Shown one piece after another: positions 28,253-48,613 of a DNA stretch of 64,000 nucleotides. The notes under the pieces were generated by a model. It saw only the letters and a program-made list of their open reading frames with translations, ran no database searches and had not been told where the DNA came from. The position numbers were made by a program, and so were the translations under genes. The DNA lies in assembly GCF_056746865.1 (NCBI RefSeq), contig NZ_CM163382.1; one strand, 5' to 3'. How positions within the stretch are numbered: position 1 is the first letter of the stretch; the number at the start of each line of letters is the position of its first letter.

Positions 28253-28261
28253 TGTGACATG

Positions 28262-28558
28262 TCACGCTCTTTTTCTGAATGATAGCCATTCGAAAAATGA
28301 TGACATTCCACCGCAGACAATAGCAAAGATGATCCCACCAAAGAAGAGAAGGCCAGCCTGCCACCACTCCCACCGCCATACATCCACAGCGCCAACCATA
28401 CCAACAATCGCTCCAACAAATGGAATATAGCTCACGATGAAAGCAATGGGGGCTGCAATTATCCAGTGCAATCCCCACCATGATTCAAGCCCAGCCATAA
28501 TTGCTGCCAACTGAAAAAGACCAACGACGATATAAACAATGAATCCTATAGCTTGCAT
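28262..28558 (-). CDS. small polytopic membrane protein, unknown function
   Basis: 98 aa with 3 hydrophobic helices and several Trp residues. Confidence 0.55.
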   Translation of the reverse strand: MQAIGFIVYIVVGLFQLAAIMAGLESWWGLHWIIAAPIAFIVSYIPFVGAIVGMVGAVDVWRWEWWQAGLLFFGGIIFAIVCGGMSSFFEWLSFRKRA

Positions 28559-28570
28559 GTAGTCACCTAT

Positions 28571-28744
28571 TTACCCAGTAAAAATCAGAGGCCTCCCCTC
28601 AATAAGGCTTGCAACAAGAACTATTCCCTGCACAACAAAGATGAACCAGCAAATAGCTTGAGTCTGAGGGTTAAGAAAATATTTGTAGCGGTCAATAAAT
28701 AACAACCCACCAGAAATTATCACACTCAAAATAATTAAAAACAC
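28571..28744 (-). CDS. small membrane protein, unknown function (below the ORF-track size cutoff)
   Basis: 57 aa from a GTG start preceded by AAGGAAG; two hydrophobic helices; lies between the 824-aa virion protein and the 98-aa membrane protein. Confidence 0.35.
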   Translation of the reverse strand: MFLIILSVIISGGLLFIDRYKYFLNPQTQAICWFIFVVQGIVLVASLIEGRPLIFTG

Positions 28745-28753
28745 AACACTTCC

Positions 28754-31228
28754 TTATTGCGGAGTGACATCCTGAGGTCGCCACCAGTATGTCTGGTTAA
28801 ACTCTTTCTTCGAACGTTGCTCCATTTTACGCAAATAGCCTGGTGAAAAATACTCCTGCATCTGGTTAAAGATCATATGATCGAGAGCCGCCTTTAAGTA
28901 CCAGAGATTCGCACCTGGCATCAAACCTTTCCCCAGCTTCACCAGATCACCACCAGTCTGCTCACTCTTCCCTTCCACAGCATTTAACGGTATGCCCTGA
29001 GCAATCTTCACTACGTCATCAACCAGACCAGCTACCGGGCCAAGCATCGACGCCAGCGCGCCGCTTCCGTACCTAGTGTGATCTGACAATAAAAAGTCAC
29101 CGTAAAGGCCAAGACCACCACCTTTCAGTAGAGCACCAAGCCAAAATTTAGCAGCATCTTCTCCTGTCATCTCGCGAGGATTACGACCAGACGCAAGGTC
29201 GTTAAGTTGCTGCGACAAAGCGCCAAGAATGGTCGTACTGGCAATAAACGTCGCAATATATGCCGCACGCCCACCAGCAGACGGCATACCCATAGCGCGT
29301 GACCAGTGACGCATAACCACCGAGATAGGGAACGATTTAAACAGGAAAACACTTCTCGTTAATTCACCTTTCCATGTTCCACGCTGAATACCAGAACCGG
29401 TTATCAGTTGCTCACGTGCTCCCGGTGTAATAACAGCCATATCAACTTCTTCAGTTACGGCACCGAGCAGTTTACGCATTGCCTCAAATTTCACGCGTTC
29501 AGGCTCACCAAGATGTTTAACTGCTGAATCAGGGATACGCATAATGCTTTCCGGTGTCAGCATCGTATTATTGCCGTTCCCCCAGTCCTCCTGTTGCGCC
29601 AGCTTCCATACGCTCCAGTCTGTGTCAGTAATCCCTTTGCTTTTCAGGATACGAAAATCAGAATCATCGAGGCTACGAAGGTCTGGTGTCCGTGACACTA
29701 CTTCTCCCAGGCTTCCCATCATGGTTACGCCATAGGCGCGCTTGTGCGCATCTGACCATGCTGTAAGCCCACTGGCACGCATTACCGCCGTTGCAGCCCA
29801 ACGAGACACAGACGGCCCCATATTATCCATCGCCCAGCGGTTAACGCTGCCAAGTAGAGATTCCATCGCCAGACCAGCGCGGCGCGCCCGCGCAAGTTCT
29901 GTACGGTTCGTTGGGTCCATAGCTTCAAGCTGGTTGCGGAATAACTGGTTCATTGGAAGGTTGGTAACCTTCGCAGACAGATACATGGTTCCAAGATCAG
30001 AGAACGATGACAGCAACGCGGATCCGAGTCTGCTGGCAACCAGCCAGTTGCGGATATTGTCAGACCATCGCGCGATGTGCGGATTCGCTACAGGCTGTGT
30101 CTTTCCGGAAATAAAATTGTACAGATTCTCTGTGTTGTTCGCCAGCCGCTCGACTTTACCGGTTTTACTCGGGTTAGCTGTTGCCGTTTCTGCCTTCACC
30201 TGATCAAGAAGAGAGCGGAAAACATGATCGGGGTTTGGGCCATATGTTTCCACCAGTGCAATATCTTTACTGATACCTTCAAGGTGACCGACCATGATTT
30301 CCCATAGAGAGCGATCGCCATAAAGTTGCTGATATTGCAGATAGGAATCTGCATCTTTGAAATGTATCTGTCGTGATGCATTACCACGGTTAGCACGTGC
30401 GCCGGAAATTCGCATTCCGGTATCAGTAAGCTTATTCAGCCCACCAGTAGCGATCGTGTTATAAGCCTCTCCAAGAAATGCAGACAACTCGGCATCGTTC
30501 ATCAGTTGTCCATCGGCTCGGGTATAATATTTGCGATCCAGCTTACCTATAACATCGCTAACCCATTTATCTTTTGATACCGCCCCAACCTTTTCCATAG
30601 AATGATGTTGAGGGATCCCCCAGTTTTCGAGATAGCCAATGTCCCCACCAGCATCATTAAACCGGCGGCGCAGCAGCTCTGTAACTTCTCTCCACGCCTT
30701 AGCACCTTTTCTTGCTTTAGCATTGCCAGTATTTTGCCCCCGCATTTCATATACCAGGTCACGTACGCCCGCTTCATCTTCAAACAGACCAAAAAAGCGA
30801 GGATCAACTGCTTCGAATGCCTCCTGCAATTGACTCAATGCATAATCACGGGTGGCTTTTGTTCTGGATTCAACAGAGAGGAAATTCGATTTACCGTCTG
30901 CATTAAAAGCAATAGTACGGTTAAGAGCGCCAAGTTTCCCATCAGCCCCTTGATAGCTATTGATAAATTTATCCAATCTCTGACGTGCGGCTATAGTGAG
31001 GGCCACACGACGTTTCTTTAATGCCGCTTCTCGCTGTAATTCTTCAGATGCCAATTGTGCTGCACGATACAACCGTTCTGATTCGGAAAGTTGTCGCCAC
31101 GACATCGGGTCATCACGAGCAATGGAGCGCATATTTCGATAAATGCGGTCTTCAATGTTCTGTATTTCTCGCGCCGTTAACGTGCGCTGCGCCGCCTGCT
31201 GGACCGCTTGTATACATTCCTGTCTCAT
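28754..31228 (-). CDS. large virion-associated protein (internal virion / ejection protein candidate)
   Basis: 824 aa; placement within the structural gene block. Confidence 0.5.
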   Translation of the reverse strand: MRQECIQAVQQAAQRTLTAREIQNIEDRIYRNMRSIARDDPMSWRQLSESERLYRAAQLASEELQREAALKKRRVALTIAARQRLDKFINSYQGADGKLGALNRTIAFNADGKSNFLSVESRTKATRDYALSQLQEAFEAVDPRFFGLFEDEAGVRDLVYEMRGQNTGNAKARKGAKAWREVTELLRRRFNDAGGDIGYLENWGIPQHHSMEKVGAVSKDKWVSDVIGKLDRKYYTRADGQLMNDAELSAFLGEAYNTIATGGLNKLTDTGMRISGARANRGNASRQIHFKDADSYLQYQQLYGDRSLWEIMVGHLEGISKDIALVETYGPNPDHVFRSLLDQVKAETATANPSKTGKVERLANNTENLYNFISGKTQPVANPHIARWSDNIRNWLVASRLGSALLSSFSDLGTMYLSAKVTNLPMNQLFRNQLEAMDPTNRTELARARRAGLAMESLLGSVNRWAMDNMGPSVSRWAATAVMRASGLTAWSDAHKRAYGVTMMGSLGEVVSRTPDLRSLDDSDFRILKSKGITDTDWSVWKLAQQEDWGNGNNTMLTPESIMRIPDSAVKHLGEPERVKFEAMRKLLGAVTEEVDMAVITPGAREQLITGSGIQRGTWKGELTRSVFLFKSFPISVVMRHWSRAMGMPSAGGRAAYIATFIASTTILGALSQQLNDLASGRNPREMTGEDAAKFWLGALLKGGGLGLYGDFLLSDHTRYGSGALASMLGPVAGLVDDVVKIAQGIPLNAVEGKSEQTGGDLVKLGKGLMPGANLWYLKAALDHMIFNQMQEYFSPGYLRKMEQRSKKEFNQTYWWRPQDVTPQ

Positions 31229-31233
31229 TTAAT

Positions 31234-33036
31234 TTAACCTCTCAAGAAACACGCCACAGCAACATCAAACAGGCTGGAATCCTGTATTGCCTGCTCACTT
31301 TCCCTGTTCGCTTCATCCAGTACTTCACGCGCACTGCGCGATTGTGGATTACCATCATCATCCAGCACGGTGATTATCATGTCAGGTGATTCAAGCAGCG
31401 AGTCTTCAGCTATGCGCAGATCAATATCTCCTGCCTGATCTGACATCATTTTTTGTTCTGCCTGTTGCAATATTTTATCAGGCTCAAAAGGAGCTACTTC
31501 GTCTGGCGTCCTGACCTCTGCTGTTTTATAGAATGAAACAGCCTGAGCATTAAGTTCACTTTCTGCCTGCTGTCTCCGAGCCAGTTCTGCTCGAGCTTCA
31601 AAAAACTGACCGCCAGGCTCGTGCGGTGCCAACGCGTTACGGGAAAATTCCAGGCGTTCTTGTGCCTGCCGGATTCGTTGATCAATATCGCGAAGTCTGG
31701 CCTGTTTATCTGATCGAGCACGAGACAAAGCTTTACCGCTACCGGTTGGCTCTTCTGCAAGAATTTGTGCACGCTGTTCAGTGAGATTTTCAATAATTCG
31801 TTGGCTATTAGCGATTTCAGACTGGTAAACCTGTCTATCTCCACGCGGCAAAAGCTGCGCGGCCTGTTCTTCAAGCAACCGATTTTCTATAGCGCGCGCC
31901 GTTACTCCATCATCTACAGATGACAGAGCCTCATTAACTGCCTGAGACAGCAGACTCTTGCGCCCAGGAATTTCACTGAAAGATGCAGACTCAACAATGC
32001 TGGCAACGTCTACAGGTCTCCCCTGGCTAACATCAGACATAGCTTTTCGCAGAGCCTGAATGTGAGAATTGCGCGAAAGCACGTTGATCGGCACGCCGGG
32101 CGCAATATCAATTTCAGCATGATGAGCGGCATTCGCCGCCAGTGCAGCATCGATATCAACTGGTGAAAAATTTGGTGCGTTTGTAGACTCGCCGCGAGAG
32201 TTAATAAATCTGCCGACACCACCAAACGCCACCCCAAGAACAGCATCAATAGCAATTGCCTGTCGATCCAACACATCATACTGGTTAGCCATTTCGCTAT
32301 AGCCACCATCACGAAGTGTTTTTGCAGTAAGCCCACGCTGTGCCATACCGAACGCAATATTTGTACCTGCGGCATAGGCAATATCTGGCGTTGCACGTAC
32401 TGCTGTTGCTGCGGCGCGTCGCACTGAACTCTCACCCGTCCGCGCAAGCTGAGCCGCCACACCTTCCGCCAGCGCACCACCAGCACGTAACCCGAGGCTC
32501 ATAGGGATCAGCGTTCCGGCACCAGCAGTAATGCCCTGCACTAATCCCGCTTCCTGCGCCGTCCTGAAATCAACACCCTGTGCTGTCAGCCGTTCAAACT
32601 CAGAAAAACCCTGTAGCGAAGTTACCGCCGCTGCACCTCCGACAGGACCACCGAGCGTTGTACCGACAACAGCCTGCCCGCCCATATCGAACAACCCATA
32701 AAGAACCTGCCCGGCGGTTCCAGTTGTCGCGGCATCAGGCGTCAGCCGCTTAACCTGCTGCTCTGCTAGTTTTCTCTGCTCGGCAATGTATGAAACTGAA
32801 GTATCATTGAGCGAGGTGTTTTCGTTAACAAACTGAGCAATCGGGGATACGATTTTATCCATCCCTGCCCATAGCAACTGATCTGGCTTTGCCACCAGCC
32901 CGGAGTACAAACCAGACAATGCCGCTCCTACAGCATTGTCGAAAAAACCAACATCGCTGTTAAAGCCAGCTGGATTTGATGCTGCTTCGTCAAGCTGCTG
33001 ATTCTGGTTTACTGGATTAAGGCCAAAGTAACTCAT
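31234..33036 (-). CDS. virion-associated protein (internal core / ejection protein candidate)
   Basis: 600 aa; Ala/Gly-rich central region; translationally coupled to its neighbours. Confidence 0.45.
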   Translation of the reverse strand: MSYFGLNPVNQNQQLDEAASNPAGFNSDVGFFDNAVGAALSGLYSGLVAKPDQLLWAGMDKIVSPIAQFVNENTSLNDTSVSYIAEQRKLAEQQVKRLTPDAATTGTAGQVLYGLFDMGGQAVVGTTLGGPVGGAAAVTSLQGFSEFERLTAQGVDFRTAQEAGLVQGITAGAGTLIPMSLGLRAGGALAEGVAAQLARTGESSVRRAAATAVRATPDIAYAAGTNIAFGMAQRGLTAKTLRDGGYSEMANQYDVLDRQAIAIDAVLGVAFGGVGRFINSRGESTNAPNFSPVDIDAALAANAAHHAEIDIAPGVPINVLSRNSHIQALRKAMSDVSQGRPVDVASIVESASFSEIPGRKSLLSQAVNEALSSVDDGVTARAIENRLLEEQAAQLLPRGDRQVYQSEIANSQRIIENLTEQRAQILAEEPTGSGKALSRARSDKQARLRDIDQRIRQAQERLEFSRNALAPHEPGGQFFEARAELARRQQAESELNAQAVSFYKTAEVRTPDEVAPFEPDKILQQAEQKMMSDQAGDIDLRIAEDSLLESPDMIITVLDDDGNPQSRSAREVLDEANRESEQAIQDSSLFDVAVACFLRG

Positions 33037-35546
33037 TGCGGAATATCTCCGGAGAATCTCTGACGCTTCTGTGTCAGATTAAGAACAACGGGAGAACCAT
33101 CATCTTTCAGCAGATAACCAGTACCAAGTTTCACCAGGTACTGACTATCGCCGTAACTTTGCAAACCATACTGACCAGGCGGTGTTTTTATCCCAGAGCC
33201 GACAACTTGTTCATTCCAAGCCTGATTAACCTGCTTATCGAATTGCTCTGCAGACATTCCCCACGGCAAAAGGACATTCCCCATTCCGTTATAGTCATGC
33301 ACGCCACCTGTAGCTACGTTAACAGCCTGTTTCCAGACATCATTGTCAATTTCGCCTGATACCACGCCTTTTTTCGCCATCACACCAGCGTAATAATCCT
33401 TTGCGATCTCGTATGCCATTGATGCCCCCTGAGCGTCACCAGCAAATGCATCCTTCACCATGTCAGAAAACTCAAGGCGAAGATCAGCATCTTTAGGCAT
33501 CGGAATACCTTTCGCATCATCAGTACCTTTACGAGCCGCCGCGCCAGCAAGAATTGTCTGCGCAGCGGTTTCAGGAGACACGGAAACATCCGGATTAAAC
33601 CAGTTTTTTTCTGCCAAAATACCACCTGGCTTATCCATCAGTATCCCGGCAACGGCAGCAGATGGAGCGTTGGCACTGATCTGCTGTAGTGCTGACATAT
33701 ACACCTGCCCACCACCAGTGCTCTGCCTGATGGTATCTAGATATGCTGCCTGTTGGGAAACGGGCGCATCACGAAAGAAAACACCGATCTGATTGGCCTC
33801 GTCTTTGGAAAAGAACGTCAGTGGAGTGCCATATGACTTAGCAAGGTCACTGACCTGAGCAGCACGCAAGGCAACGCTCTGTCCAAAGTTATCCTTATTG
33901 CTCATGTCGATAGGCTTTGTCTGTCCGGCGGCAAGAGAGAACTGTACAGGATCAGCCTGTCGCTGCTTTATCACCTGACTTGCAGCCGACACAACGTTGT
34001 CATAAAGAGCGGCTCGTGCCGCATAACCCTCCCCTGTCTCACCAGTATCCGGGCGTAATTGCTCAACATATGCTGTAATGCTGCTTGTCGGCATGTTGCG
34101 GAAAGAGCCTATATACTGTCCGGCGATTTGCGTATTTCTGAACTCGGTATATCGCAGGTTTCCTTCTCTTACTCCATAAGCTGCAATAAAATCAGCCTCA
34201 CCAGGTGGGTTAGGAAATTCAACGCCACGCATATACGCAGCTGTCGCATCGCGAACCTGGCTGTCAATCATCGTTTTATATTCAGCCTGCTGCTGCCGAC
34301 GCAGTTGATCCGCCTGTCGCATAAAACTTGCCTGCGCCTCAGGAGATGCCGCATCGAATGCTGCATTACCGGTATAGCGTTTGGTGTTGGTTGGAATTGT
34401 TGATAAACCAAGTGCTGCACTGACACCAGCAGTTAACTGCTGATCACTGTATGGCTGGCTACCGTTCTCATGATGGATAATGGCTGCACAAAGCGCCTTC
34501 AGGGTATCAGGATTAGATGCATCGAGAGGCTCATCAGCAGAAACGCCAAGTTGTTCGCACACTGCTTTGATATACGACATAGTGTCATTTTTATCAGCAG
34601 GCGGTGCCCAGCGATTAATTATCTCGCTGACGGTATCAATACCCTGCCTCTGATACGACATCAGGTTCCGCCCTAATGCACGAATCCCGTGTTCAGGTGT
34701 TTCGAATTTAGCAAATCGACCATCATCACCGGTCTGGCCTACCCACGGATTAGTTTTGCTGTATTCGAGATTTCCTGGGTTATTGTTGCGTATGCCACGG
34801 GCACGCTCGGAAGAGTCACTATCTGCTACAGCACGGCGAGCTCCAGCAGCAGTATCACTTAACTCGCCATTACTTTGGATGAATGCGGTCGCATTGTTTG
34901 CCGACCACTGGGACAATGCAGCATCAGCAACCTTCTCTTTAAACTCGATTTTCTTGGCCTGGATTTGCTCGTTGCTCCAGCCATGTGCAACACCGTACTC
35001 CTCAATTTGCTGGAAAGTTTGTTTGTTAGCCAATACGTATGCGGCGTTGTCGCCATACAATGCTGCGGCATTTTTACCATTGTTCAGCAGTGTCGCCTGA
35101 AACTGGCCTTCTTCGTAGGCATTAATTTGCCCTATCTCGTGTCGCCCGGCCTGCGTAGTGAACTGAATGCGCTGCTGCTGCGCCTGCTGCATGAAAGCAT
35201 TACGAGCCTGTTCATCCGGCAGCGACATAGCCAGTTGTTCGACCTGAGCATCAAACTGCTGCGTATACTCATGGCCTTTTCCAATAGCATTTTTCCCTTT
35301 CAGGTTAAGCAATCCTGTTTCAGGATTATTCAGCAGATCGCTGCTTATCTGACTGAGGTTAAGAGATGCCTCCTGAGCCAGAGCGATATTGGCACGCTGT
35401 TTTGCCTGCCCCAAAACATCAATTGCCTCTGTCCCTGCCCGAACAAAAGCATCACCAATACCTTGCTGAGAAAACGTCTGCAAGCCTGCTGACTGAACTC
35501 CACGACTCTCAACCTGACGTCCGGATACTGTTGGTACGACTGGCAT
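33033..35546 (-). CDS. large internal virion protein with a possible peptidoglycan-hydrolase-like segment
   Basis: About 837 aa from the ATG at 35546, which overlaps the upstream gene stop; segment GIRNNNPGNLEYS...FAKFETPEHGIRALGRNL resembles a phage virion-associated cell-wall hydrolase motif (recalled, not searched). Confidence 0.45.
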   Translation of the reverse strand: MPVVPTVSGRQVESRGVQSAGLQTFSQQGIGDAFVRAGTEAIDVLGQAKQRANIALAQEASLNLSQISSDLLNNPETGLLNLKGKNAIGKGHEYTQQFDAQVEQLAMSLPDEQARNAFMQQAQQQRIQFTTQAGRHEIGQINAYEEGQFQATLLNNGKNAAALYGDNAAYVLANKQTFQQIEEYGVAHGWSNEQIQAKKIEFKEKVADAALSQWSANNATAFIQSNGELSDTAAGARRAVADSDSSERARGIRNNNPGNLEYSKTNPWVGQTGDDGRFAKFETPEHGIRALGRNLMSYQRQGIDTVSEIINRWAPPADKNDTMSYIKAVCEQLGVSADEPLDASNPDTLKALCAAIIHHENGSQPYSDQQLTAGVSAALGLSTIPTNTKRYTGNAAFDAASPEAQASFMRQADQLRRQQQAEYKTMIDSQVRDATAAYMRGVEFPNPPGEADFIAAYGVREGNLRYTEFRNTQIAGQYIGSFRNMPTSSITAYVEQLRPDTGETGEGYAARAALYDNVVSAASQVIKQRQADPVQFSLAAGQTKPIDMSNKDNFGQSVALRAAQVSDLAKSYGTPLTFFSKDEANQIGVFFRDAPVSQQAAYLDTIRQSTGGGQVYMSALQQISANAPSAAVAGILMDKPGGILAEKNWFNPDVSVSPETAAQTILAGAAARKGTDDAKGIPMPKDADLRLEFSDMVKDAFAGDAQGASMAYEIAKDYYAGVMAKKGVVSGEIDNDVWKQAVNVATGGVHDYNGMGNVLLPWGMSAEQFDKQVNQAWNEQVVGSGIKTPPGQYGLQSYGDSQYLVKLGTGYLLKDDGSPVVLNLTQKRQRFSGDIPQ

Positions 35547-36091
35547 TATAATCCTCCGGGTAATCTGGTTCCTGCTGCTGCCCCGATTGGCGCAGGAGTG
35601 CTTTGAGTAAACGGACTCCACGTCCCACCAAACATCTGGTACGCACCGTATGCCTTCAGAGGCGCAGTGAGCAATGTTGTTGCTGCTCCCACATTCCCCT
35701 GTTTACGGGCTGAACTGGCTTCTGCTTTATAGTTGGCAGCCTGAACCTGATAACCGTAAGCCTCGCGTTGCGCGTTATTCACCGTCGTCAGCGAATCAAG
35801 AGCGCCAAACTGGGCAGTGTCGCCAAATATATCCAGCGCGTTACCTGTAGATAAATCAGCGCCGGTAGCCCCCATTGTCGCCGCCTGTGTACCAAGCCGC
35901 TGTCGGGTCTCTCTGCGTCGTTGCTCAGCTTCAGCGTTACCTCTGTTTATTGCATCATTTGCCTGAGATGTGGCTATATCTGCGTTCGCTTCTGCAACCT
36001 TCGAGGCATACTTTCCCTGTTGGTACTGGGTGTATGCCTGAATGCCACTCATGGCGAGCATTGCGCCACCAGCAATAACCGGATCGCACAT
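35546..36091 (-). CDS. internal virion protein (T7 gp14-like size and composition)
   Basis: 181 aa, Ala/Gln-rich. Confidence 0.4.
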   Translation of the reverse strand: MCDPVIAGGAMLAMSGIQAYTQYQQGKYASKVAEANADIATSQANDAINRGNAEAEQRRRETRQRLGTQAATMGATGADLSTGNALDIFGDTAQFGALDSLTTVNNAQREAYGYQVQAANYKAEASSARKQGNVGAATTLLTAPLKAYGAYQMFGGTWSPFTQSTPAPIGAAAGTRLPGGL

Positions 36092-36555
36092 TATTTTCTC
36101 TCCATGTGAAATCTGTGGAAATTAAGACCAAGAGCACCATAAGGCGCGGCTTCTTCAAGCCTGAATCCAAGCCAGTGCAGCCATGCTTTGGCAACATGGT
36201 TTCGCTCGTCGACGTAGTTTTCCAGGCGCGGATAAACTGCCAGCATCTGCTGCAATACAGGGCGGCAGTGGCGCAGAAATGTCTTCTGATATTTTTCAAT
36301 ACGGCTGGTTCCTACCAGCCAGGGCGTACCATTGCCACCGATCATTGACGCCGGAGATACACCAAACATGGTTACCAGTTCTCCGTTCGCGAACCCTGAC
36401 CAGGCCATAGTCGCAGTGCGAAGACCAACGCGCAGCGCATCTTCGGTAGTCATCAGCGATACCGCATACAGTTCGTCAATATCAGCCTGACGAACATCCG
36501 GCAAAATCATCTGAAGATGCTCTTCGGTAGCGGGAATAATTTGAACATCGATCAT
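36091..36555 (-). CDS. hypothetical virion-module protein
   Basis: 154 aa; start overlaps the upstream stop. Confidence 0.4.
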   Translation of the reverse strand: MIDVQIIPATEEHLQMILPDVRQADIDELYAVSLMTTEDALRVGLRTATMAWSGFANGELVTMFGVSPASMIGGNGTPWLVGTSRIEKYQKTFLRHCRPVLQQMLAVYPRLENYVDERNHVAKAWLHWLGFRLEEAAPYGALGLNFHRFHMERK

Positions 36556-39631: not shown

Positions 39632-39960
39632 TACTCACCCCCATTGCCGTACAGAGTTTCAGCCGCTGATTTTTCTACATCCCCGGAAACAGGAGCGATC
39701 GCCATATCAGTGATCTGCAGATCGGCGCTGCGATTAACACCATCGTCAGTTTCTCTGGCAGACAGGCCTCGAATAACAGCCTTTGCAGTTATCATCACTT
39801 CTGTTCCGACGCCCTGAGGTTGCGCCTTCAGCTTATTCAATGTGTCGTTATTCAGCGTGATGCACAGCCCCCACGGGTATTCATCGCGAGTTCTGGTTTC
39901 TCCGCTCTCATCCTGGTAGCTGTCAGTGCCGGTTTTGAGGTTTACGAGTTCCATATACAC
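39631..39960 (-). CDS. hypothetical structural protein
   Basis: 109 aa. Confidence 0.4.
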   Translation of the reverse strand: MYMELVNLKTGTDSYQDESGETRTRDEYPWGLCITLNNDTLNKLKAQPQGVGTEVMITAKAVIRGLSARETDDGVNRSADLQITDMAIAPVSGDVEKSAAETLYGNGGE

Positions 39961-40004
39961 TCCTGCAATAAAGGGGCCGAAGCCCCTTGTCTGATCCGCG
40001 AGGC

Positions 40005-40349
40005 TTACACGCCCAGTTCTTTACGCTTATCTGCGATCTTCTCGCGGAGCGTTTCGGCTTTGGCGTTATGGTGTGGCTTCTCGTTAAAGAGCAATTCGTA
40101 CTCTTCACGGAGCTTATCCAGTTCACCATCATCTGACACATCGTTGATGATTTTGGTGCTGGTTGCTGCCATTGACACCTTTCCTGCAACTTTTGCTTTT
40201 GCCTGTCTGGCTGCATCGTTAACAGGTTCCAGTGCGCTACCAGGCTCACCTTCGTATTCGATTTCTGCCCCCTCCTGCCACAGAGTGTTATGGATATGAG
40301 AGAGGCGCAGAACGCGGTATCTTGGTTTCTCACCTGACATCGATATCAC
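40005..40349 (-). CDS. hypothetical protein in the head module
   Basis: 114 aa, charged. Confidence 0.4.
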   Translation of the reverse strand: MISMSGEKPRYRVLRLSHIHNTLWQEGAEIEYEGEPGSALEPVNDAARQAKAKVAGKVSMAATSTKIINDVSDDGELDKLREEYELLFNEKPHHNAKAETLREKIADKRKELGV

Positions 40350-40350
40350 C

Positions 40351-40788
40351 TTAACCAGTTACTTTTGAGCGGATCGGATACGGCGTATTGGCATCAACAT
40401 CAAGACTGATACCAGCAGTGAATTCGCCAGCCGTTAGTGGGCCAGTTGCGACGGAGTAGTTAACACGCAGATATCGCTGAACACCGGCAGGCACCTTTGC
40501 AGAAACGACTCGTTTACCTGCTGTCAGGGTGGTCTTTGCCAGTGCACCACTATCATAAATAGTGGTCCATGAGCTGTTATCCTCACTCGTCTGCAACTGG
40601 ATGTTTACAGTTGCATCACCGCTTGCTGCGGCGGCTGTGTTAACCAGCGCCCAAAACTCAAGCGGGTAACCCACGCCGATATCACGACGTTTTCCGTCAA
40701 TTGGACCGAGATCGATTACGTCAGTAGAAGCCGCGGTATCAGTTACCGCCTGTGCTTCGGAGAACATCAACAGTTTGTCGGTGATCAT
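40351..40788 (-). CDS. capsid decoration / cement protein candidate
   Basis: 145 aa immediately downstream of the major capsid gene. Confidence 0.4.
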   Translation of the reverse strand: MITDKLLMFSEAQAVTDTAASTDVIDLGPIDGKRRDIGVGYPLEFWALVNTAAAASGDATVNIQLQTSEDNSSWTTIYDSGALAKTTLTAGKRVVSAKVPAGVQRYLRVNYSVATGPLTAGEFTAGISLDVDANTPYPIRSKVTG

Positions 40789-40839
40789 CTTCTTTCTCCA
40801 TTAGTGGGTCTGTTACGACCCACAGGTTAATAACAGGCG

Positions 40840-41832
40840 TTACACCACGCTGGCTTCTGTTTCCAGAAGCGCATCAGTTTCACGGATTGGTACACCACGG
40901 AATGACGTCCACCACTCGCCTTCAGTCTCTTTTACGCTGATCGCCAGAGATGTTTTCTCCAGAGACTGCAAATCAAGAGCCTGGCCTACAGTGCGGTTCA
41001 TGTAGAACACCGGGCGCCCCATGCCACGGTTCGGAATGCGATGCAGTGCTTTAACCATCAACTTCGCAATATTTGCGGCAGAGGAAGGTTCTGAAAGATT
41101 GCTGACATCGATGTTTGCAATGCGAACAACATAACGCCAGTCACGCAGAGCAAGTCCGTTATCCCATTTGTAATGGGTGCGATAGCCTTCGTACTTGCCG
41201 CCATTAGCATCTTCCAGTGTCACCTGGCCTTTATCTTCCATCTGGATGCCAGCCTTCTGCCCTTTCGGGAAGATGCCATGCACGGTGTTTTCGCCCCACA
41301 CCACTAACCAGATTGAGGTGTTATCTGTACCCGTGCCACCAGCATCAATGATGTTCTGAGCATTACCCGCAGACAGGCTGGAATAGCGGGAGGACAGTCC
41401 CATAAACTGCTGAGGGTTAACGCTGGAATCACCATAAAACAGCGTCTGCGCCATCTGCTGATTCATCGCTTCAATAAATGCGCGGTCTTCAGACAGGCGG
41501 AATTCGGCGGTATTGCCGTTCAGATCAGCCAGTGACTTATCGACTTCAGCATAGGTTTCCAGCATGCCAACGGAATCGGTGACCTGCACCGTGGTTGATT
41601 TGCTTGGCTGTACGCCATAGTTCAGCAAACGCCAGGTAGCTGAAGGTAAACCAGAACGAATGGTGGTTCGGTGTCCGGTAGGAAGGTTCCCTTCGACAAA
41701 AGGCATATCCTGAAGGATCGGGTTAGTTTGACCGAGAAGCTCGATAATCTTATCGACTTTCCCGTTTGGATCGACGCGCTTACCCCAGTCAGCCAGCGTT
41801 AGCGCAGTTAAGCCTTTAACAGCCATTGTCAT
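40840..41832 (-). CDS. major capsid protein
   Basis: 330 aa following the scaffold-like gene. Confidence 0.65.
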   Translation of the reverse strand: MTMAVKGLTALTLADWGKRVDPNGKVDKIIELLGQTNPILQDMPFVEGNLPTGHRTTIRSGLPSATWRLLNYGVQPSKSTTVQVTDSVGMLETYAEVDKSLADLNGNTAEFRLSEDRAFIEAMNQQMAQTLFYGDSSVNPQQFMGLSSRYSSLSAGNAQNIIDAGGTGTDNTSIWLVVWGENTVHGIFPKGQKAGIQMEDKGQVTLEDANGGKYEGYRTHYKWDNGLALRDWRYVVRIANIDVSNLSEPSSAANIAKLMVKALHRIPNRGMGRPVFYMNRTVGQALDLQSLEKTSLAISVKETEGEWWTSFRGVPIRETDALLETEASVV

Positions 41833-41840
41833 TTCCTCTC

Positions 41841-42542
41841 TTATTTGCCATAGAGCACTTCGGCCGCACTACGCTGGCCTTCATTACCACCGGTGACCAT
41901 GCCATCTTCAGACATCGCCTTTCCGATTTTCACGAACGTTTTAACCAGATCAGGGTGATTACCCAGCCCGGTGGTGTTCAGATATTCTTTGAGTTCAGGT
42001 GTCCCGAACTGGTCAAGCGCACGCTGTGCGGCGCTAAGGTTAGAAATCAACTTGTCGCCACCGATTTCTTTGTCAGCTTTTACATCCGCAGCCCACTGCT
42101 CGGTTGTTTTCTGCCAGGCTTCTGCCTGGCGCTGCTGAACACCTGCCAGAATCTTCGGATAAGCATCAACCAGCTTTTGCGCTTGCTCGTTGGTCAGGTT
42201 AAGTTCTCGCGCCACCGGCTCGAATTCCTTCAACGCTTCTGTATCCAGCTCTACGCCTTCGGCAGCCTGAAACTCGTACTTTTCAGGCGCACCCTCAGGT
42301 TTATCGCCGTCCTTTTTTTCATCCTGCTTATCGTTTTCAGGCTTTTTGTCATCAGCAGGTTTATCGCCATCAGCAACAGGTTGTGGCTTATCACCTTCCT
42401 GTTGTGATGGATCACCAACTGGAGCAGGGGTATCACCTGCAGGCGCTGACGGTTCTGACGCAGCCGGAGCTGCTCCACCATCGACTGGTTGCTCATTGCA
42501 AAGACGGCGATACAGCAAACGCTCAAATAAATTCATGATCAC
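41841..42542 (-). CDS. scaffolding protein
   Basis: 233 aa; acidic, Pro/Asp/Lys-rich low-complexity N-terminus and helical C-terminus, between portal and capsid genes. Confidence 0.55.
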   Translation of the reverse strand: MIMNLFERLLYRRLCNEQPVDGGAAPAASEPSAPAGDTPAPVGDPSQQEGDKPQPVADGDKPADDKKPENDKQDEKKDGDKPEGAPEKYEFQAAEGVELDTEALKEFEPVARELNLTNEQAQKLVDAYPKILAGVQQRQAEAWQKTTEQWAADVKADKEIGGDKLISNLSAAQRALDQFGTPELKEYLNTTGLGNHPDLVKTFVKIGKAMSEDGMVTGGNEGQRSAAEVLYGK

Positions 42543-42835
42543 TCCTGTTCACTGGCCTCTTTGGCCATCTTCAAATACTGTTCAGGGCAATGCGCCATAA
42601 CGCGCTGAAACAGTTCCAGCGCCAGATTGCGTTGCCCCTCATTAAATGCCATTGCCATAGCGTCCATCGGCGAGATAGCGGAAAACACACGACCTTTCTC
42701 CAGCACCGACCAGACAACGCGACGCCCCTGTTCACTGCTCATGACAAAGCGAATGTCATCAATTTCACGCTGTGCCATGTCACGTTGCTTACGGGCGTTT
42801 TCTTCTTTCAGTTGATCATCTTCGTAATCTGTCAT
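42539..42835 (-). CDS. hypothetical head-module protein
   Basis: 98 aa overlapping both neighbours. Confidence 0.4.
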   Translation of the reverse strand: MTDYEDDQLKEENARKQRDMAQREIDDIRFVMSSEQGRRVVWSVLEKGRVFSAISPMDAMAMAFNEGQRNLALELFQRVMAHCPEQYLKMAKEASEQE

Positions 42836-44511
42836 TGTGATTGCCCACCCTGACCACTAACTGCATTCGCCATAGCTGACAAAACACTCGGATCAGAAGT
42901 TTTAGCTTCGCTTAGCGTCTTGGCACCCTGTGCCGCCGCCATCCCCATCGCCATCATTTGTTGCTGCTGTTGCTGCTGTGCCCGTTGCTGGCGAGTCTGC
43001 TCAACCTGTTCCTGCGGAACAATGACGGTTGGAGACACTCCGGACATATCAGCGAATGCATCGATCGCCTGATCAACGTTGAGTTTGTCGAGAGCTTCTG
43101 GTTTCGCTTGCGCAAGTTGACCAATGAAGTTGACCGTGGATGCCAGACTGGACAGGCCGATAGACTTCTGCGCCTGAGCCATGACGGAAATGTATTCGAC
43201 CTTCAGGGGCATACCTTCCATCGCGTCAGGCGGTGGCGGCAGCATGTTTTTACGCACCATCATCGAGAAAGCGCGGTCAATGAGAGGATTAAGACATTCG
43301 TCGTTCAGACGCTCCAGAACCGGCCCCAACATCAGAAGTTTTTCTTCTTTCATTTCGATCACCGCTTCAACAGGCATCGAGCGGGTATTGATGTTCTGCA
43401 ACATCATGAACAGATCGACAAAGTAGGCGCTGTTAATGATTTGCCGAGTGTCCTGAATGTCTGCTACCAGATCTGCTGTACTGGGGTTAACCAGATAAGC
43501 AGGCCTGAAACCATCCTGACCAGTAATCTGATCGATATACGTGATGTCGCCAGGAAGAAGGGAGGCGCGCTGATTCTTGAGGGAAGTCGGAGCAACCATC
43601 GGCGGATTGGTGGCTTTATCAATCAACTGCGACTTGCGCTTCTGGAGAAGCTGCAATGCCTTAACAGGTCCAAGCGCCAGCATACCCGGGCATGATGATC
43701 CATAAACATCTTCGCCGTTAACTTCCCAGCGCGGAGCCATAATTGGAAACTCATCGAATCCGGACTCACGCAACAACTTGTCGTTATCGCCACCAACCTC
43801 GTAATAAACCGATTTGAATGGCTTGTTCTTGCTATCCAGCTTCGATGTATCGCGGTCAATGTTCGGGTAAACCGAATGCATCACTTCAATCCACTTCTCG
43901 TAGGTTCCGCTTTCCCACATGCTTTTTACGGATTCGCTGACGTTATTTAGCCCGAACTCCTGAACAAGCTGACGAACAGTCATAGAGAACTTGCGAAAAC
44001 AGGTGTCCACACTGCCACGAGGTGAGTTAGCCAGGTAGTAACTGCCTATCGGGAATGGCATTGTGCGAATGATGTCCTCGTCATCCTCCAGCACTGCCAT
44101 TGCACCAGTGCTGTATGTGCCGAGGCTTCCGTATAACTGCGGCAGCGACTGATAGAGATTCGACTTATTGAACATATCGTTCATGCGGTTCTGCACCGCC
44201 TCAAGCCACAACTTAACAGGGCCATAATCCATCATTTCAGGATCTGGCGTAGCCAGGCGAAACCACGGACGCGCGGGGCTTGTGATGCCTGACATCATGC
44301 CGCTGGCGAGAGTGCGCGCCGCCATAGTCCCGGTCGAATCAATAATGCGTGTATTGCGTCGATCGTTACGGTTAACCTCAGAAGTCAGAAAGCGGGAACC
44401 ACGCGGGTTGATGTAATCACTCAACTCGCGCCAGTGCGGCTCGAACGACTGACGCTCGCTTTCAAGTTGTGCGAACTGTTTGTTCAATCGCTCTTTAGTT
44501 GTTTCCGCCAT
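42832..44511 (-). CDS. portal (head-to-tail connector) protein, T7 gp8-like
   Basis: 559 aa; Gln/Ala/Met-rich C-terminal tail (QQRAQQQQQQQMMAMGMAAAQG) reminiscent of T7-type portals. Confidence 0.65.
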   Translation of the reverse strand: MAETTKERLNKQFAQLESERQSFEPHWRELSDYINPRGSRFLTSEVNRNDRRNTRIIDSTGTMAARTLASGMMSGITSPARPWFRLATPDPEMMDYGPVKLWLEAVQNRMNDMFNKSNLYQSLPQLYGSLGTYSTGAMAVLEDDEDIIRTMPFPIGSYYLANSPRGSVDTCFRKFSMTVRQLVQEFGLNNVSESVKSMWESGTYEKWIEVMHSVYPNIDRDTSKLDSKNKPFKSVYYEVGGDNDKLLRESGFDEFPIMAPRWEVNGEDVYGSSCPGMLALGPVKALQLLQKRKSQLIDKATNPPMVAPTSLKNQRASLLPGDITYIDQITGQDGFRPAYLVNPSTADLVADIQDTRQIINSAYFVDLFMMLQNINTRSMPVEAVIEMKEEKLLMLGPVLERLNDECLNPLIDRAFSMMVRKNMLPPPPDAMEGMPLKVEYISVMAQAQKSIGLSSLASTVNFIGQLAQAKPEALDKLNVDQAIDAFADMSGVSPTVIVPQEQVEQTRQQRAQQQQQQQMMAMGMAAAQGAKTLSEAKTSDPSVLSAMANAVSGQGGQSQ

Positions 44512-44525
44512 TTCAATGACTCCGG

Positions 44526-44732
44526 TTACTGACCAAGCAGCGTTTTACCGCTGGTATTAGCGGTTGATGTGTCGCCCTGAGAACCGGTAAGCAGCGTAGA
44601 ACTACGACCAGCAGCAGCGCGACGGCGACGAGTTTCTTCGTCGCGGGCATCAACAACGGCGGCATCCTGCTCCTGTGGTGCTGCCTGAACTTCTGGTGTT
44701 GCAGGCACTGATGGTGAGCTACCCATGCACAT
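44526..44732 (-). CDS. small hydrophilic protein upstream of the portal gene (frame choice uncertain)
   Basis: 68 aa; an alternative overlapping frame (44513-44752) also exists. Confidence 0.25.
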   Translation of the reverse strand: MCMGSSPSVPATPEVQAAPQEQDAAVVDARDEETRRRRAAAGRSSTLLTGSQGDTSTANTSGKTLLGQ

Positions 44733-44821
44733 ATCAATGACTCCGTACGCAATTAAATTATTACCAATTTAACCACATATGATTTATTTATCGTAGGTAG
44801 TTGACATTTAACGCACAAATT

Positions 44822-44836
44822 ATTACCTTTCAGGTA
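44822..44836. promoter_or_regulatory. operator-like inverted repeat TTACC-TTTCA-GGTAA upstream of the portal/head gene block
   Basis: Identical to the site at 27880; preceded by the shared TTACC-N5-AACCACATATG module. Confidence 0.5.
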
Positions 44837-45159
44837 ACCAAAGAGTTCATTCCGGTTACTAACCTGACTGGCTTGTCGTTAAATTGAACAGGTGGAGTGA
44901 GCTTTTATTTTGAGCAGTACGGCGTATGGCACATGCGCCGATAGCGGTCTGGATACGTTTAAGGGGCACCCTCCCTTGCTCGGGCAAACGAACCAGGTAG
45001 CCGGAATGTGCAAGTCGAGCGGTTTTATTCCGCGCACGGGGATTCACCATCCCGGCGATTCGGTGTGACGCCTCGGAAGAGACGAGGGTACAACGATGAG
45101 AGCATTTATGGAGCCGCGACAAAGTGTGGCGCCTTAACAGGCTAAGTGCTCTCAGCGTT

Positions 45160-45236
45160 GTGGCATTAGCTCAGCTGGACAGAGCAACCGCCTTCTAAGC
45201 GGTTGGTCGCAGGTTCGAATCCTGCATGCCACGCCA
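45160..45236 (+). tRNA. tRNA-Arg, anticodon UCU (reads AGA), prophage-encoded
   Basis: Manual cloverleaf: acceptor GTGGCAT/ATGCCAC, D-stem GCTC/GAGC, anticodon stem ACCGC/GCGGT with loop CTTCTAA, T-arm GCAGG-TTCGAAT-CCTGC, discriminator G and CCA end. Confidence 0.85.
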
Positions 45237-45279
45237 GAATCACGCCTAAGGACCGTGATGCCAGAAGTTCCATGGGCTT

Positions 45280-45321
45280 GGCGGTGATGGTTTCCCTTGA
45301 AGGACTATCACCGCCCTTTTT
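45280..45321 (+). terminator. rho-independent terminator downstream of the tRNA
   Basis: GGCGGTGAT...ATCACCGCC stem followed by CTTTTT. Confidence 0.55.
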
Positions 45322-45399
45322 ACAGCAGGACGCCATTGCGATGGCTTCATGCTGTAAACCAGTACAGCCACGGAAGGCATAACTCATTGCTTCCAGTTC

Positions 45400-45423
45400 G
45401 CCCGGTTCGCCGGGCATTTTTTT
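45400..45423 (+). terminator. rho-independent terminator
   Basis: GCCCGG-ttc-GCCGGGC followed by ATTTTTTT. Confidence 0.6.
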
Positions 45424-45431
45424 AAGGTGAG

Positions 45432-45808
45432 ATGATGAACGACCAGCAAATCGAAAAAGAAATCGTTGAGAAAGGTAAAACGGCACCTCGTGTAACTCCT
45501 GAGAAAATTGAAGGTCTCATTTGCAGTGAGCATTTTTTACTGCTGCGCAGGGGGATCATCAGGCTAAAGAAGATGACCTTATTTATAATCCAGAGCCTTA
45601 TGTCGAAGCCACCCCTGATGCTCTGCACCTTCTCACTTTCTGCGTCCTGGTGCTGCGCAACGACTTCACCGTCACCGGAGAGAGCGCCTGTGCAAGCCCG
45701 GAAAACTTTGATGCAGAAATTGGTCGGAAGATTGCCCGGCAGAATGCTGTAAACAAAATCTGGATGCTTGAAGGTTACTTGCTGAAGCAGAAGTTAAGCG
45801 GGCAATAA
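45432..45808 (+). pseudogene. conserved small phage protein gene interrupted by a frameshift at a T6 homopolymer
   Basis: N-terminal 35 codons in one frame (MMNDQQIEKEIVEKGKTAPRVTPEKIEGLICSEHF) continue after the T6 run at 45533-45538 in another frame (...TFCVLVLRNDFTVTGESACASPENFDAEIGRKIARQNAVNKIWMLEGYLLKQKLSGQ, stop at 45806-45808). Confidence 0.5.
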
Positions 45809-45898
45809 CACCGTGACATGTCACAAACAGCCAGCCTATGAGCTGGCTTTGTTTTATCCTCACCAGAGGATATCAACGACATTATCCCCACCAGCGGA

Positions 45899-47374
45899 TT
45901 AAGCATAGGGATCGTAATCTGTAATGGCCTTGCCTTGCTGGTTCTGCTGACCTGGAATTCGCAGACGCTTCGACACAGGGAAAGCAAACGTCAGCAATAG
46001 CGCATCGCCTTTACCCGGCGAACGCCCAAGACGCTCTTTGATATCTTCCTTCGGTTCGATAACGATTTTACCGTCCACGCGAACTTTGTACTCTGCCGCC
46101 GACAGGTCGTCCGCTGTTTCCTGGTCATCCAGCATGCCGCCCAGCCTCAGCCATGTCTTACATGAGTTGAACATCTCCCCACGCTTGTTAAGCATCTGCG
46201 GGTCAGTGGACGCACCGCCGAACGGAACAAGTTGCCATGTACGCCCCCAGCCATCACCGATTGACTTCAAACCGGTTCCGTAACCGAAGTCGATGAACAC
46301 TGCGTCAGCCTGGTACTGGTCTTCAAAGTCAGCGATACGCTTCGCCATAATCAGATCGTCAGTGGTCTTGTTGCCAGTCCACAGCACCTTACTGTGCAGC
46401 CCCTGCCGCAGGTATATCACAGCGTCATCAACGCCGGAGTATGCCGGGTCAACGCCGATTATCACCGGAGCATGTGCAACCTGCGCAGCGGTTACCACCC
46501 GTTTCATTGCCTCGTCAGTAAGACCGGTAGGGATAAACTGCAATTCAGATGCATCAGGGAATATGCCACGCACACGGATTTTAACGAAGTCGCTGTCTTC
46601 CCCGTAGTCATCAACCCATTTCTGCAACTGCTGTTTGTTAGTGCCTTCCACCGTCCGGCTGTCAATCTGCGCAGTTTTCCAGCGGTGTTTATATTTGCGG
46701 AAACATTCGCGAAAACGCCCGGTGTTACGTGTAGGGTTTCCGAACGCCACCCAAATAATCTCAGTGTCTTCGTCCGTAAGCGCACCCTCGGCAACTTCCC
46801 ACACCAGATCCGCAATGTTCGACGCTTCATCAAACACCACGATGATGCGTTTGCGCTCGTTGTGTAGTCCGGCGAATGCCTCAGTGTTGTGCTCAGACCA
46901 GGGTATTGCGTCAGCCCGCCACCGCTTGTCGTGCCCAGGGTCATTGCTGTACATCGCGGTAGCGGTACAGGTAAACCAGTCTTTCGTGATAGCAAGGTTC
47001 GACCACTTGATAATTTCCGGCCAGGTCTTCGTTCGTAGCTGGTTGTCGGTGTTGGCGGTCACCACGACCTTACAATCCTCGCAAGTGGACATGCCCCAGT
47101 TGATGAGCATTGAGATGAATGCGGATTTACCAATACCGTGACCAGAAGCACGTGCCAGCATAAGCGGCTGATAACGCGTCTCTGGATTCTGCAGGTGATC
47201 ACGTATCTCTCGGAACGCATCGGCCTGCCACTGACGTGGACCGGTAGCATGTGCCAGTTCAGTCCCCTCTTCCCCCCAAGGGAACGCATAGAGGGCATAG
47301 CCAAGCGGATCGTGAGTGAACCCTGCAATATCTTCGATTAACTGCTCTTCAGGAGATAACGCTGCATCTGTCAC
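45899..47374 (-). CDS. terminase large subunit
   Basis: 491 aa; Walker A-like motif (ASGHGIGKS), ATPase and nuclease acidic motifs; overlaps the small-subunit gene. Confidence 0.8.
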   Translation of the reverse strand: MTDAALSPEEQLIEDIAGFTHDPLGYALYAFPWGEEGTELAHATGPRQWQADAFREIRDHLQNPETRYQPLMLARASGHGIGKSAFISMLINWGMSTCEDCKVVVTANTDNQLRTKTWPEIIKWSNLAITKDWFTCTATAMYSNDPGHDKRWRADAIPWSEHNTEAFAGLHNERKRIIVVFDEASNIADLVWEVAEGALTDEDTEIIWVAFGNPTRNTGRFRECFRKYKHRWKTAQIDSRTVEGTNKQQLQKWVDDYGEDSDFVKIRVRGIFPDASELQFIPTGLTDEAMKRVVTAAQVAHAPVIIGVDPAYSGVDDAVIYLRQGLHSKVLWTGNKTTDDLIMAKRIADFEDQYQADAVFIDFGYGTGLKSIGDGWGRTWQLVPFGGASTDPQMLNKRGEMFNSCKTWLRLGGMLDDQETADDLSAAEYKVRVDGKIVIEPKEDIKERLGRSPGKGDALLLTFAFPVSKRLRIPGQQNQQGKAITDYDPYA

Positions 47375-47967
47375 TGATTACCATCCTGACGTTCTTTGAG
47401 TCGCTTCCTGGCTGCCGCTATGCGATCAGCAATTGTCACATTCACATTAACATCCAGTCGTTCTTTGAATGCGTTGACGTCGACGTGCTTACCAATCAGT
47501 TCGAGGTTCTTCACCTTGTCAGGCCATTTAATTTTTTTGAGGATTGTCTCTATCGAATCCTCGTTCATGTTCATGATGGTCGATGACAGATCAAAGCCGC
47601 TAAGCGTAGTGCGCCAGATTTTCGGCCACTCGCGGATTGGCTTAAGGCTCCCATCGTCGTTGAGGATATCAATCACGTCCATCTGGTCGATCTCCACCAG
47701 GCGCATGAGAACGTAATCAGCACTGACGCGCATTCGTTTGTTGCGCTCCTCCATCAACTCGGCAATCCGTTTCTGAATGCGTTCATCGCGCATCATGACA
47801 CTGGCTTTAACTGCCGCTGTATTTGGGGAGAATCCTGCATTAATCGCAGCCTGAGTCTGGTTTTCAGGCGTTTTGATGTATGACTGGCAATAAGCCTCCT
47901 GCATTGCTGTTAGTGGCTTAAATTGCGTTGATTTGCGTTTATAGGCTTTAGGTTCAGCAGGCATCAT
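47371..47967 (-). CDS. terminase small subunit
   Basis: About 198 aa from the ATG at 47967 (the ORF track extends to 48045 through a repeat-encoded TITTTVTITT segment); basic N-terminal DNA-binding region. Confidence 0.65.
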   Translation of the reverse strand: MMPAEPKAYKRKSTQFKPLTAMQEAYCQSYIKTPENQTQAAINAGFSPNTAAVKASVMMRDERIQKRIAELMEERNKRMRVSADYVLMRLVEIDQMDVIDILNDDGSLKPIREWPKIWRTTLSGFDLSSTIMNMNEDSIETILKKIKWPDKVKNLELIGKHVDVNAFKERLDVNVNVTIADRIAAARKRLKERQDGNQ

Positions 47968-48041
47968 AACCACCGTGGTAATAGTTACCGTTGTGGTAAT
48001 AGTAACATGCAAAATAAAGCCGCCATAGTTGGCGGCAGTAT

Positions 48042-48254
48042 TCAAAGTCCATCAAATTCATCGTAAAAACTCTCGTCAAGATACCCTTCCCATTTACCGC
48101 GAATGAAAATTACATCCTCGCCGCAAGGGTGCTGACTGTCGATAACTATATCCCTCCTGGCGCAACCATACTTATGCATGAGAAATTTAACCTCTTTCGG
48201 AAAATTTGCTGAGTTATCTCTCATATCTTCAAGGTCGTAGCGTATTTTTGGCAT
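48042..48254 (-). CDS. hypothetical small protein
   Basis: 70 aa from MPKIRYDLEDM, with AAGGTG 5 nt upstream. Confidence 0.45.
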   Translation of the reverse strand: MPKIRYDLEDMRDNSANFPKEVKFLMHKYGCARRDIVIDSQHPCGEDVIFIRGKWEGYLDESFYDEFDGL

Positions 48255-48271
48255 AACACCTTCGTGACATG

Positions 48272-48613
48272 TCACACTATTAATTTCGTTTCATGCCAGC
48301 CTTTAGTCACCCAGCATTGTGAGTCACCATTACACGGACATGAATTAACTGGAACTCTCTCGCCGCACTTACCGCAACGTTTTCTACTGATCGATTTTAT
48401 ACGCCCGCGCACGCGTGCATCATCCTGGCGGATCAGTAACGCTATATACTCACCAAATTCGTAAGGCGCACGCCCGGGGCGACGCGCGGCACAGTTACGC
48501 TCAAGCATTTCAATTTCCTGAGCATCAAGCACAATCTCCAGCTTACGTACACCGGATGCAGCTTGTCTGGCTCTCTGAGCGGCTTTGCGCTCTGCTGCTG
48601 ATTTAGCCATCAA
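48272..48613 (-). CDS. hypothetical protein with C-terminal Cys-rich zinc-ribbon-like motif
   Basis: 113 aa; basic N-terminus and CGKCGERVPVNSCPCNGDSQC. Confidence 0.45.
   Translation of the reverse strand: MMAKSAAERKAAQRARQAASGVRKLEIVLDAQEIEMLERNCAARRPGRAPYEFGEYIALLIRQDDARVRGRIKSISRKRCGKCGERVPVNSCPCNGDSQCWVTKGWHETKLIV

Follow-up and report, generated by a model that had tools for sequence, protein, structure and literature searches.

In a 64,000-nucleotide stretch of contig NZ_CM163382.1 (NCBI RefSeq assembly GCF_056746865.1), called the window here in its full length, a perfect 12-bp palindrome, GTGACATGTCAC, is carried in three copies by a reverse-oriented epsilon15/phiV10-like prophage (Uetakevirus) with yfgI and guaA on either side of it in a chromosome of the E. 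coli type. Comparison across phages indicates that the palindrome is probably the operator of a 113-amino-acid (aa) protein of the same prophage, predicted to consist of a ribbon-helix-helix (RHH) domain and a Cys4 tail, with sites placed at gene ends and at the junctions between conserved operons and variable cargo. Physical binding of this protein to the palindrome is very likely, while the proposed outcome of binding, a transcription barrier or repression, is advanced more tentatively.

The three copies are termed site A, site B and site C (Table 1). A scan of the whole window confirms all of them at the positions originally predicted and finds none elsewhere, and the relaxed pattern GTGACNNGTCAC recovers the identical three sites with no extra one. 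Chance predicts 0.01 copies, and none of 100 dinucleotide-preserving shuffles of the window reaches three, an excess as large as had been claimed. Site A is positioned 4 nt past the TAA stop of a frameshifted gene of the Gp49/Sf6-gp66 family, immediately ahead of a terminator. Site B lies directly upstream, on the minus strand, of the terminator of the structural/injection operon. Site C, the most conserved of the three, is located between the last early-right gene and a small open reading frame (ORF) preceding terS. These contexts had been described correctly as intergenic or at a gene end, with the refinement that site C overlaps the TGA stop of the early gene. The gene ending inside this third copy, overlooked in the original prediction, is the likely source of the binding protein.

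The association of the motif with this gene extends across phages that are otherwise unrelated. When every ORF of the window prophage is searched by tblastn, the 113-aa protein is the only one common to the prophage, ZF40, a Yersinia P2-like phage, a Vibrio phage and N15. ZF40, a myovirus with different structural genes, contains three exact copies of the palindrome, one of them 3 nt past the stop of gp22. The Yersinia P2-like phage contains one exact copy and one copy with a single mismatch, 33 bp apart, Vibrio K308 contains GTGACACGTCAC twice, and N15 contains three GTGAC(CA/TG)GTCAC sites, one of which falls on the stop codon of gene 46. In a Mu-like prophage, GTGACTGGTCAC occupies part of the last 40 bp of the family gene.

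The family was sampled through two sets of 80 IMG/VR loci encoding relatives of the protein, 2.57 Mb in total. The form GTGAC-N2-GTCAC occurs at 219 sites and in 156 of the 160 loci. Other spacings are represented by two sites with N1 and none with N0, N3 or N4, and controls with swapped or permuted half-sites give 0-9 sites in the same DNA. The central dinucleotide of 110 distinct sites is AT in 77, GC in 19 and AC/GT in 8, with few others. No GTGAC-N2-GTCAC site is found in lambda, in the right part of phage 186 (which is without the gene) or in about 127 kb of E. coli DNA that includes the host flanks and 100 kb of K-12. A palindrome common throughout the host chromosome, or absent from homologous prophages, had been named beforehand as grounds for refutation; it is absent from the sampled host DNA and present in those prophages. 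Because the motif accompanies one specific DNA-binding protein gene across unrelated phages, the regulator-binding site, one of the options listed in the original prediction, has strong comparative support.

The 113-aa protein belongs to PHROG 536, labelled 'transcriptional regulator', and has no match in sequence searches of Pfam, NCBIfam, PADLOC or PDB. In the predicted structure, it adopts an RHH fold with dimerization through a paired N-terminal strand, to which a tail with predicted zinc binding and a conserved basic N-terminal helix are added. Its homologues include epsilon15 gp49, phiV10 gp55, ZF40 gp22, N15 gp46 and proteins of P2-like Yersinia phages and Vibrio phages, and an exhaustive profile search collects 227 clusters at 50% identity. 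Across many distant clades (epsilon15, N15, 186-like, lambdoid), the TGA stop of the gene is the TGA within GTGAC, always in the same register. Since the stop codon is part of the site, gene and site form a single heritable module. The sequences of the strand are Arg-rich (NEIRARLE, TRRDWVLE) in clades whose sites have GC or TG centres and of the KLEIVLD type in clades with AT centres; this tracking is weak and suggestive only.

Among the Uetakeviruses, the identical 12-mer is found at three homologous positions, with differing flanks, in epsilon15 (2142, 19517 and 39612), phiV10 (2262 and 19493, the third copy being divided between the record ends), Tyrion and a prophage of E. coli CREC-U1. 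An exact site C is retained at the 3' end of the gene in 79 of 80 close relatives. Each Uetakevirus site stands where a conserved operon stops and variable cargo begins. At sites A and C, the cargo-side sequence diverges among relatives from the first bases past the palindrome, and site B forms, together with its GGCCGC hairpin, a conserved island with variable sequence on both sides (79 related contigs). The 70-aa ORF next to site C is vestigial or absent in phiV10, the CREC-U1 prophage and epsilon15, and is therefore counted as variable cargo that begins right after this site.

Table 1 Palindromic sites of the window prophage and the features around them
Feature	Position	Strand	Context
Site A, palindrome	45813-45824	.	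Between terL end with bidirectional terminator and variable cargo (frameshifted Gp49_66 gene, tRNA-Arg)
Site B, palindrome	28254-28265	.	End of long structural/injection operon, edge of moron/antirepressor cargo region
Site C, GTGACATGTCAC	48264-48275	.	Overlaps TGA stop (48272-48274, minus) of RHH gene
113-aa protein gene	48272-48613	-	Last gene of early-right operon; proposed binding protein
Terminator hairpin	45829-45848	+	4 nt from site A
Intrinsic terminator hairpin, AGGCCGCTCTTGCGGCCT then TTAAATTT	28236-28253	-	Abuts site B
Terminator	48019-48036	-	Between early-right operon (site C) and terS; equivalent annotated in epsilon15 and phiV10 records
Small 70-aa ORF, PHROG 1541, function unknown	48042-48254	-	Inserted between site C and terminator/terS
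One-mismatch copy GTGCCATGTCAC (reverse complement of GTGACATGGCAC)	42772-42783	.	Inside Bbp19-like head gene

The placement of the sites was earlier summarized as transcription-unit boundaries, a description that holds for the window prophage and extends to the family. Of 116 distinct sites, 52% overlap the stop codon of an ORF that encodes 80 aa or more, or sit no more than 30 nt past it, against 8.4% of random positions. A strict terminator hairpin lies within 5 nt of 19% of the sites, against 0.9% of random positions, and these cases are mostly Uetakevirus sites A and B, which are not independent. Next to site A, the hairpin has a good T-tract on the plus strand, where it terminates the cargo gene. 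On the minus strand, downstream of terL, the T-tract is poor and continues into the palindrome. No sigma-70 promoter is detected over site A or site C, and the single marginal match over site B is within shuffle noise. With no promoter over them and all three at transcription-unit ends by terminators, the window sites therefore favour a barrier or boundary.

In the proposed mechanism, one protein dimer would occupy each 12-bp site, recognizing the GTGAC half-sites and leaving the central two bases free. The protein would be produced late in the early-right operon and would then bind the three prophage sites, where it may form a transcription barrier or boundary beside the terminators. Less transcription would thereby run on from the protein's own operon to the small ORF and terS, or from terL to the cargo, and read-through would likewise be limited where the structural operon faces the convergent moron region. 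Such a barrier would be placed on the stop codon of the gene itself, and the protein may therefore also restrict its own synthesis. In the P2-like relatives, the bound protein may instead exert classical repression of cargo promoters.

In P2-like prophages, replication gene A is followed by the family gene, which lies to the left of a variable anti-phage defence hotspot (DUF4297-HerA, Ppl), with an array of sites to the right of it (L091 10001-15379; L009 8073-12561; L095-L127). The array consists of a weak site, a strong site 33 bp further on and, after another 33 bp, a half-site TGTGAC(A). The strong palindrome marks the exact point where homology between the phages stops, and a -35-like hexamer of the variable downstream cargo genes falls on the last half-site. 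With its phasing and its position over such a hexamer, the array suggests that cargo promoters are repressed in P2-like phages; the family search gave no assignment for the gene downstream of the arrays. The 186-like prophages carry gene and site as an insertion that separates A from the LexA-controlled p95/tum unit. About 130-170 bp past the family gene, these prophages (L128-L152, L158-L162) have a consensus LexA box, TACTGTATATAAACACAGTA, together with a tum-like unit, and phage 186 has the LexA-controlled p95 promoter without the family gene or the site. In ZF40-like lambdoid phages, the palindrome within the cII-like activator gene encodes Asp-Met-Ser with fixed wobble bases (L006 7622; L159 6425; L164 5801; L169 6382). 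A second palindrome is found there in the first early-left gene (PHROG 2479), and the pair flanks the immunity region.

Several observations weigh against the palindrome being the operator of the RHH/Cys4 protein. The link between motif and gene is purely comparative, and the enrichment statistics include related phages, which are not independent. For at least one member of the family (L092), no site is present within 10 kb. In a reverse scan of IMG/VR with TGTGACATGTCACA, the gene is present in 22 of 80 stretches; these are only 1-15 kb long and many sites lie farther than this from the gene, so that the count is uninformative either way. Across about 66 relatives, site A is missing in about 10 and carries one mismatch in about 6; with loss or mutation in about one in four close relatives, it is therefore dispensable. 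Positions also vary between phages, with intragenic sites in ZF40 (the cII-like gene) and N15 (repA) and, in one lambdoid phage, a site between the portal and head genes. These count against a roadblock, because a permanent one at such places would be harmful. The lack of a sigma-70 promoter over the window sites also belongs here.

The breaks in homology around the sites lend themselves to a different and rather unlikely explanation, compatible with protein binding, in which the palindromes are module-boundary (linker) elements, preferred as breakpoints for the exchange of cargo cassettes through shared 12-bp homology or protein-stalled replication forks. At sites A and C, the homology breaks within a few bases of the palindrome and many unrelated cargo sequences abut it, site B and its hairpin form an island between variable sequences, and in P2-like phages homology ends at the strong palindrome, with gene and array bracketing the DUF4297-HerA/Ppl hotspot. 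However, any selected element that borders a variable region would give the same pattern. Cargo varies also in relatives without site A, the sites in the cII-like gene and in repA are not at cargo junctions, and no recombinase is associated with the motif.

The half-sites invite comparison with matS, which has the 13-bp consensus GTGAC[AG]N[CT]GTCAC (PMC3603311). The phage system resembles MatP/matS of E. coli in its identical half-sites, its short near-perfect or perfect palindrome, its RHH domain and its few, widely spaced sites per replicon, and the host range of the family is similar. It differs in that the phage site measures 12 bp (N2) and matS 13 bp (RNY), and no sequence in the data falls into both classes. 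The 13-bp consensus has no occurrence in the window or in the family loci, and the same expression finds two in 100 kb of the K-12 Ter region. Unlike matS, which belongs to the Ter macrodomain, the phage sites occur in free phage genomes and in a prophage flanked by yfgI and guaA. The protein, in turn, is phage-encoded, lacks the N-terminal four-helix bundle and the coiled coil of MatP, carries a Cys4 tail instead, shows no significant sequence relationship to MatP and has one site overlapping its own stop codon. The strict spacing, one base shorter, the absence of matS-type sites and the non-significant MatP profile therefore indicate a mobile-element RHH operator set and not matS.

This resemblance underlies two further proposals. 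The first, improbable as a whole, is that the RHH/Cys4 protein and its GTGAC-N2-GTCAC sites form a 'boundary system' that is borne by the phage and resembles matS. Cargo islands (epsilon15-like morons, the P2-like defence hotspot) would have their edges marked and controlled by it, and cargo would be silenced or insulated during lytic growth. Stalled polymerases would create breakpoints for cassette swaps, and the system might interfere with host MatP/matS through the shared half-site. The second, which we consider very improbable, is that host MatP or another host factor binds the sites as matS-like elements and ties the phage genome to chromosome organization, the phage protein being unrelated or a modulator. 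Against this stand the strict N2 spacing with zero N3 (matS-type) sites in the family loci, the absence of any 12-bp site from the 100 kb of the Ter region that holds two matS, and the fact that the motif follows one phage gene and not the host. A comparison of profiles gives no significant relation to MatP (E 0.054), and avoidance of matS by prophages has been reported (PMC3603311).

A packaging (pac), replication or partition signal has an equally small chance of accounting for the sites. In Uetakeviruses, terS follows site C at a distance of 100-300 bp, and it follows one Vibrio site at 30 bp. Two of the N15 sites are in the repA operon, and dispersed palindromic centromere sites are known in N15. 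The sites of ZF40 and of P2/186-like, Mu-like and N15 phages, however, are not near terS or cos, and the packaging option of the original prediction is not borne out. No terminase, replication or ParA gene is common to the motif-bearing phages, and most of these phages integrate and need no partition.

Still less credible is an action of the palindrome as RNA or as a DNA cruciform, in the form of an accessory hairpin of the neighbouring intrinsic terminators. Terminator hairpins lie 0-4 nt from two of the three copies, and at site B the unit is conserved with its hairpin. The RNA hairpin of the 12-mer, however, reaches -1.2 kcal/mol with 4 bp and a tetraloop, Rfam gives no match for the element, 81% of the distinct sites have no strict terminator nearby, and many are intragenic. 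The GTGAC/GTCAC half-sites are invariant and the centre is free, while the variants that occur are one-sided and never compensatory. These uncompensated half-site changes and the weak hairpin therefore fit a dimeric protein that reads the sequence, and not a structure formed by RNA or a cruciform, and the site is two-fold symmetric and conserved in sequence rather than in pairing. A target of restriction-modification or methylation, also considered at the outset on account of the CATG (and ACATGT) in the element, can hardly be entertained: methyltransferases are encoded by Uetakeviruses, ZF40 and some P2-like relatives, but no methyltransferase or nuclease is common to the motif-bearing phages, and CATG falls in the variable central bases whereas the invariant part is GTGAC.

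Other identities were also rejected. The 12-mer itself does not form an intrinsic terminator, given its fold of -1.2 kcal/mol and the presence of the terminators as separate neighbouring hairpins. An RNA element is dismissed on the lack of an Rfam match, the weak fold and the absence of covariation. The operators of the prophage repressor are annotated in the epsilon15 record as ATTACC-N5-GGTAAT, a different motif.

As an operator set of an RHH/Cys4 protein, the palindromes can be set beside several known regulators. A single RHH dimer of ArtA of pSK41 binds a short CATGACA site over -35 elements (PMC2777438). ArtA, like Arc and Mnt of P22, CopG and omega, is a small RHH protein of a mobile element; it shares with the phage protein a short site, (CA)TGACA, read by a single dimer, and a dispersed arrangement of sites, and the P2-like half-site likewise overlies a -35-like hexamer. 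In contrast to such regulators, the window sites lie at operon 3' ends by terminators and not at promoters, and the phage protein has an extra Cys4 tail and a basic N-terminal helix and no sequence similarity to them. Dispersed short palindromes read by one element-encoded protein are also known from KorA/KorB of IncP plasmids and from the SopB sites of N15. The likeness consists in scattered copies of one palindrome on a mobile genome, some of them far from promoters; the folds differ, there is no partner ATPase/CTPase, and the phage family resides mostly in integrating phages. At lacI, LacI bound at O3, at the 3' end of its gene, truncates lacI transcripts and feeds back on the LacI level, in dependence on looping to O1. 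The phage operator similarly overlaps the end of the regulator gene, but here the site includes the stop codon itself, and even very distant phages keep this arrangement.

A literature search, in which few subscription journals were covered, found no description of the motif, its variants or the protein, and nothing relevant on epsilon15, phiV10 or N15 gp46. The module of regulator and operator appears to be previously undescribed, unusual in its placement and strikingly similar to matS. A widespread 'hypothetical' family of epsilon15-, P2/186-, Mu-, lambda- and N15-like phages of enterobacteria and vibrios thereby gains a testable function and a candidate cognate site. It is uncommon for a phage regulator to have its sites away from promoters, on its own stop codon, at the ends of operons and at junctions with cargo, and this arrangement could account for the insulation of conserved operons from variable cargo, be it morons or defence genes. 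The near-identity to matS, with one base fewer, raises the question of cross-talk or a common origin with the host chromosome organizer.

The original prediction also described extra upstream sequence, GCA(A)TAACACC, shared by sites A and C. It is present at both in the window, but relatives have quite different sequence there, and the extended motif GGTGTTA/TAACACC is rejected as a conserved element because it is not kept in them. At site C, GCA(A)TAACACC represents the Shine-Dalgarno sequence and ATG of the small ORF, displaced; at site A, it is a stop codon and a 4-nt spacer. GGTGTTA/TAACACC at site A recurs as the stop codon and spacer of differing cargo genes in reverse orientation. The shared flank is probably coincidental. 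Taken together, the regulator-binding site and the boundary placement of the earlier reading stand, while methylation, packaging and the extended flank fall away. The spurious GTG-initiated ORFs that it noted are indeed listed, beginning in the palindrome at 28254, 48264 (+) and 48275 (-), and are artefacts.

Further sequences related to the palindrome are seen in the window. The one-mismatch copy at 42772 is the same variant as the weak member of the double site in P2-like phages, and it may be a weak site or merely conserved coding sequence. About 370 bp from it, at 42404-42415, lies GTGATCCATCAC, a symmetric variant of the motif with both half-sites altered at the same position. It occurs once in the window, is kept in 58 related loci and may be conserved coding sequence only. 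At distances of 35 and 52 bp from the second GTCAC half of the palindrome, the regulator gene contains two extra GTCAC half-sites in its 3' end (48306-48310 and 48323-48327). They form the codons for conserved Gly-Asp and Val-Thr, and could be a chance effect of codon constraints.

Some observations concern the records and the neighbouring cargo. The phiV10 reference record, NC_007804.2, is linearized within the palindrome, so that it ends in GTGA and begins with CATGTTAC. The phiV10 annotation lets terS (window counterpart 47371-48045) begin at a TTG that makes the gene long enough to cover the upstream terminator, and epsilon15 has a shorter start, MPAEPK. The Gp49/Sf6-gp66-family gene next to site A (PF13876; 45432-45808, plus strand) consists of two overlapping ORFs as a result of the frameshift and is intact in phiV10 (p03). 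A tRNA-Arg with anticodon TCT (45160-45236, plus strand) lies in the variable cargo between site A and the gp3/portal operon, and is also present in related prophages. Elsewhere in the window, two Rfam matches exceed the gathering score: the Hfq-binding small RNA STnc490 (146 bits; 22945-23068, minus strand) and sRNA-Xcc1 (65 bits; 60200-60289, plus strand), the latter near the integrase end of the prophage.

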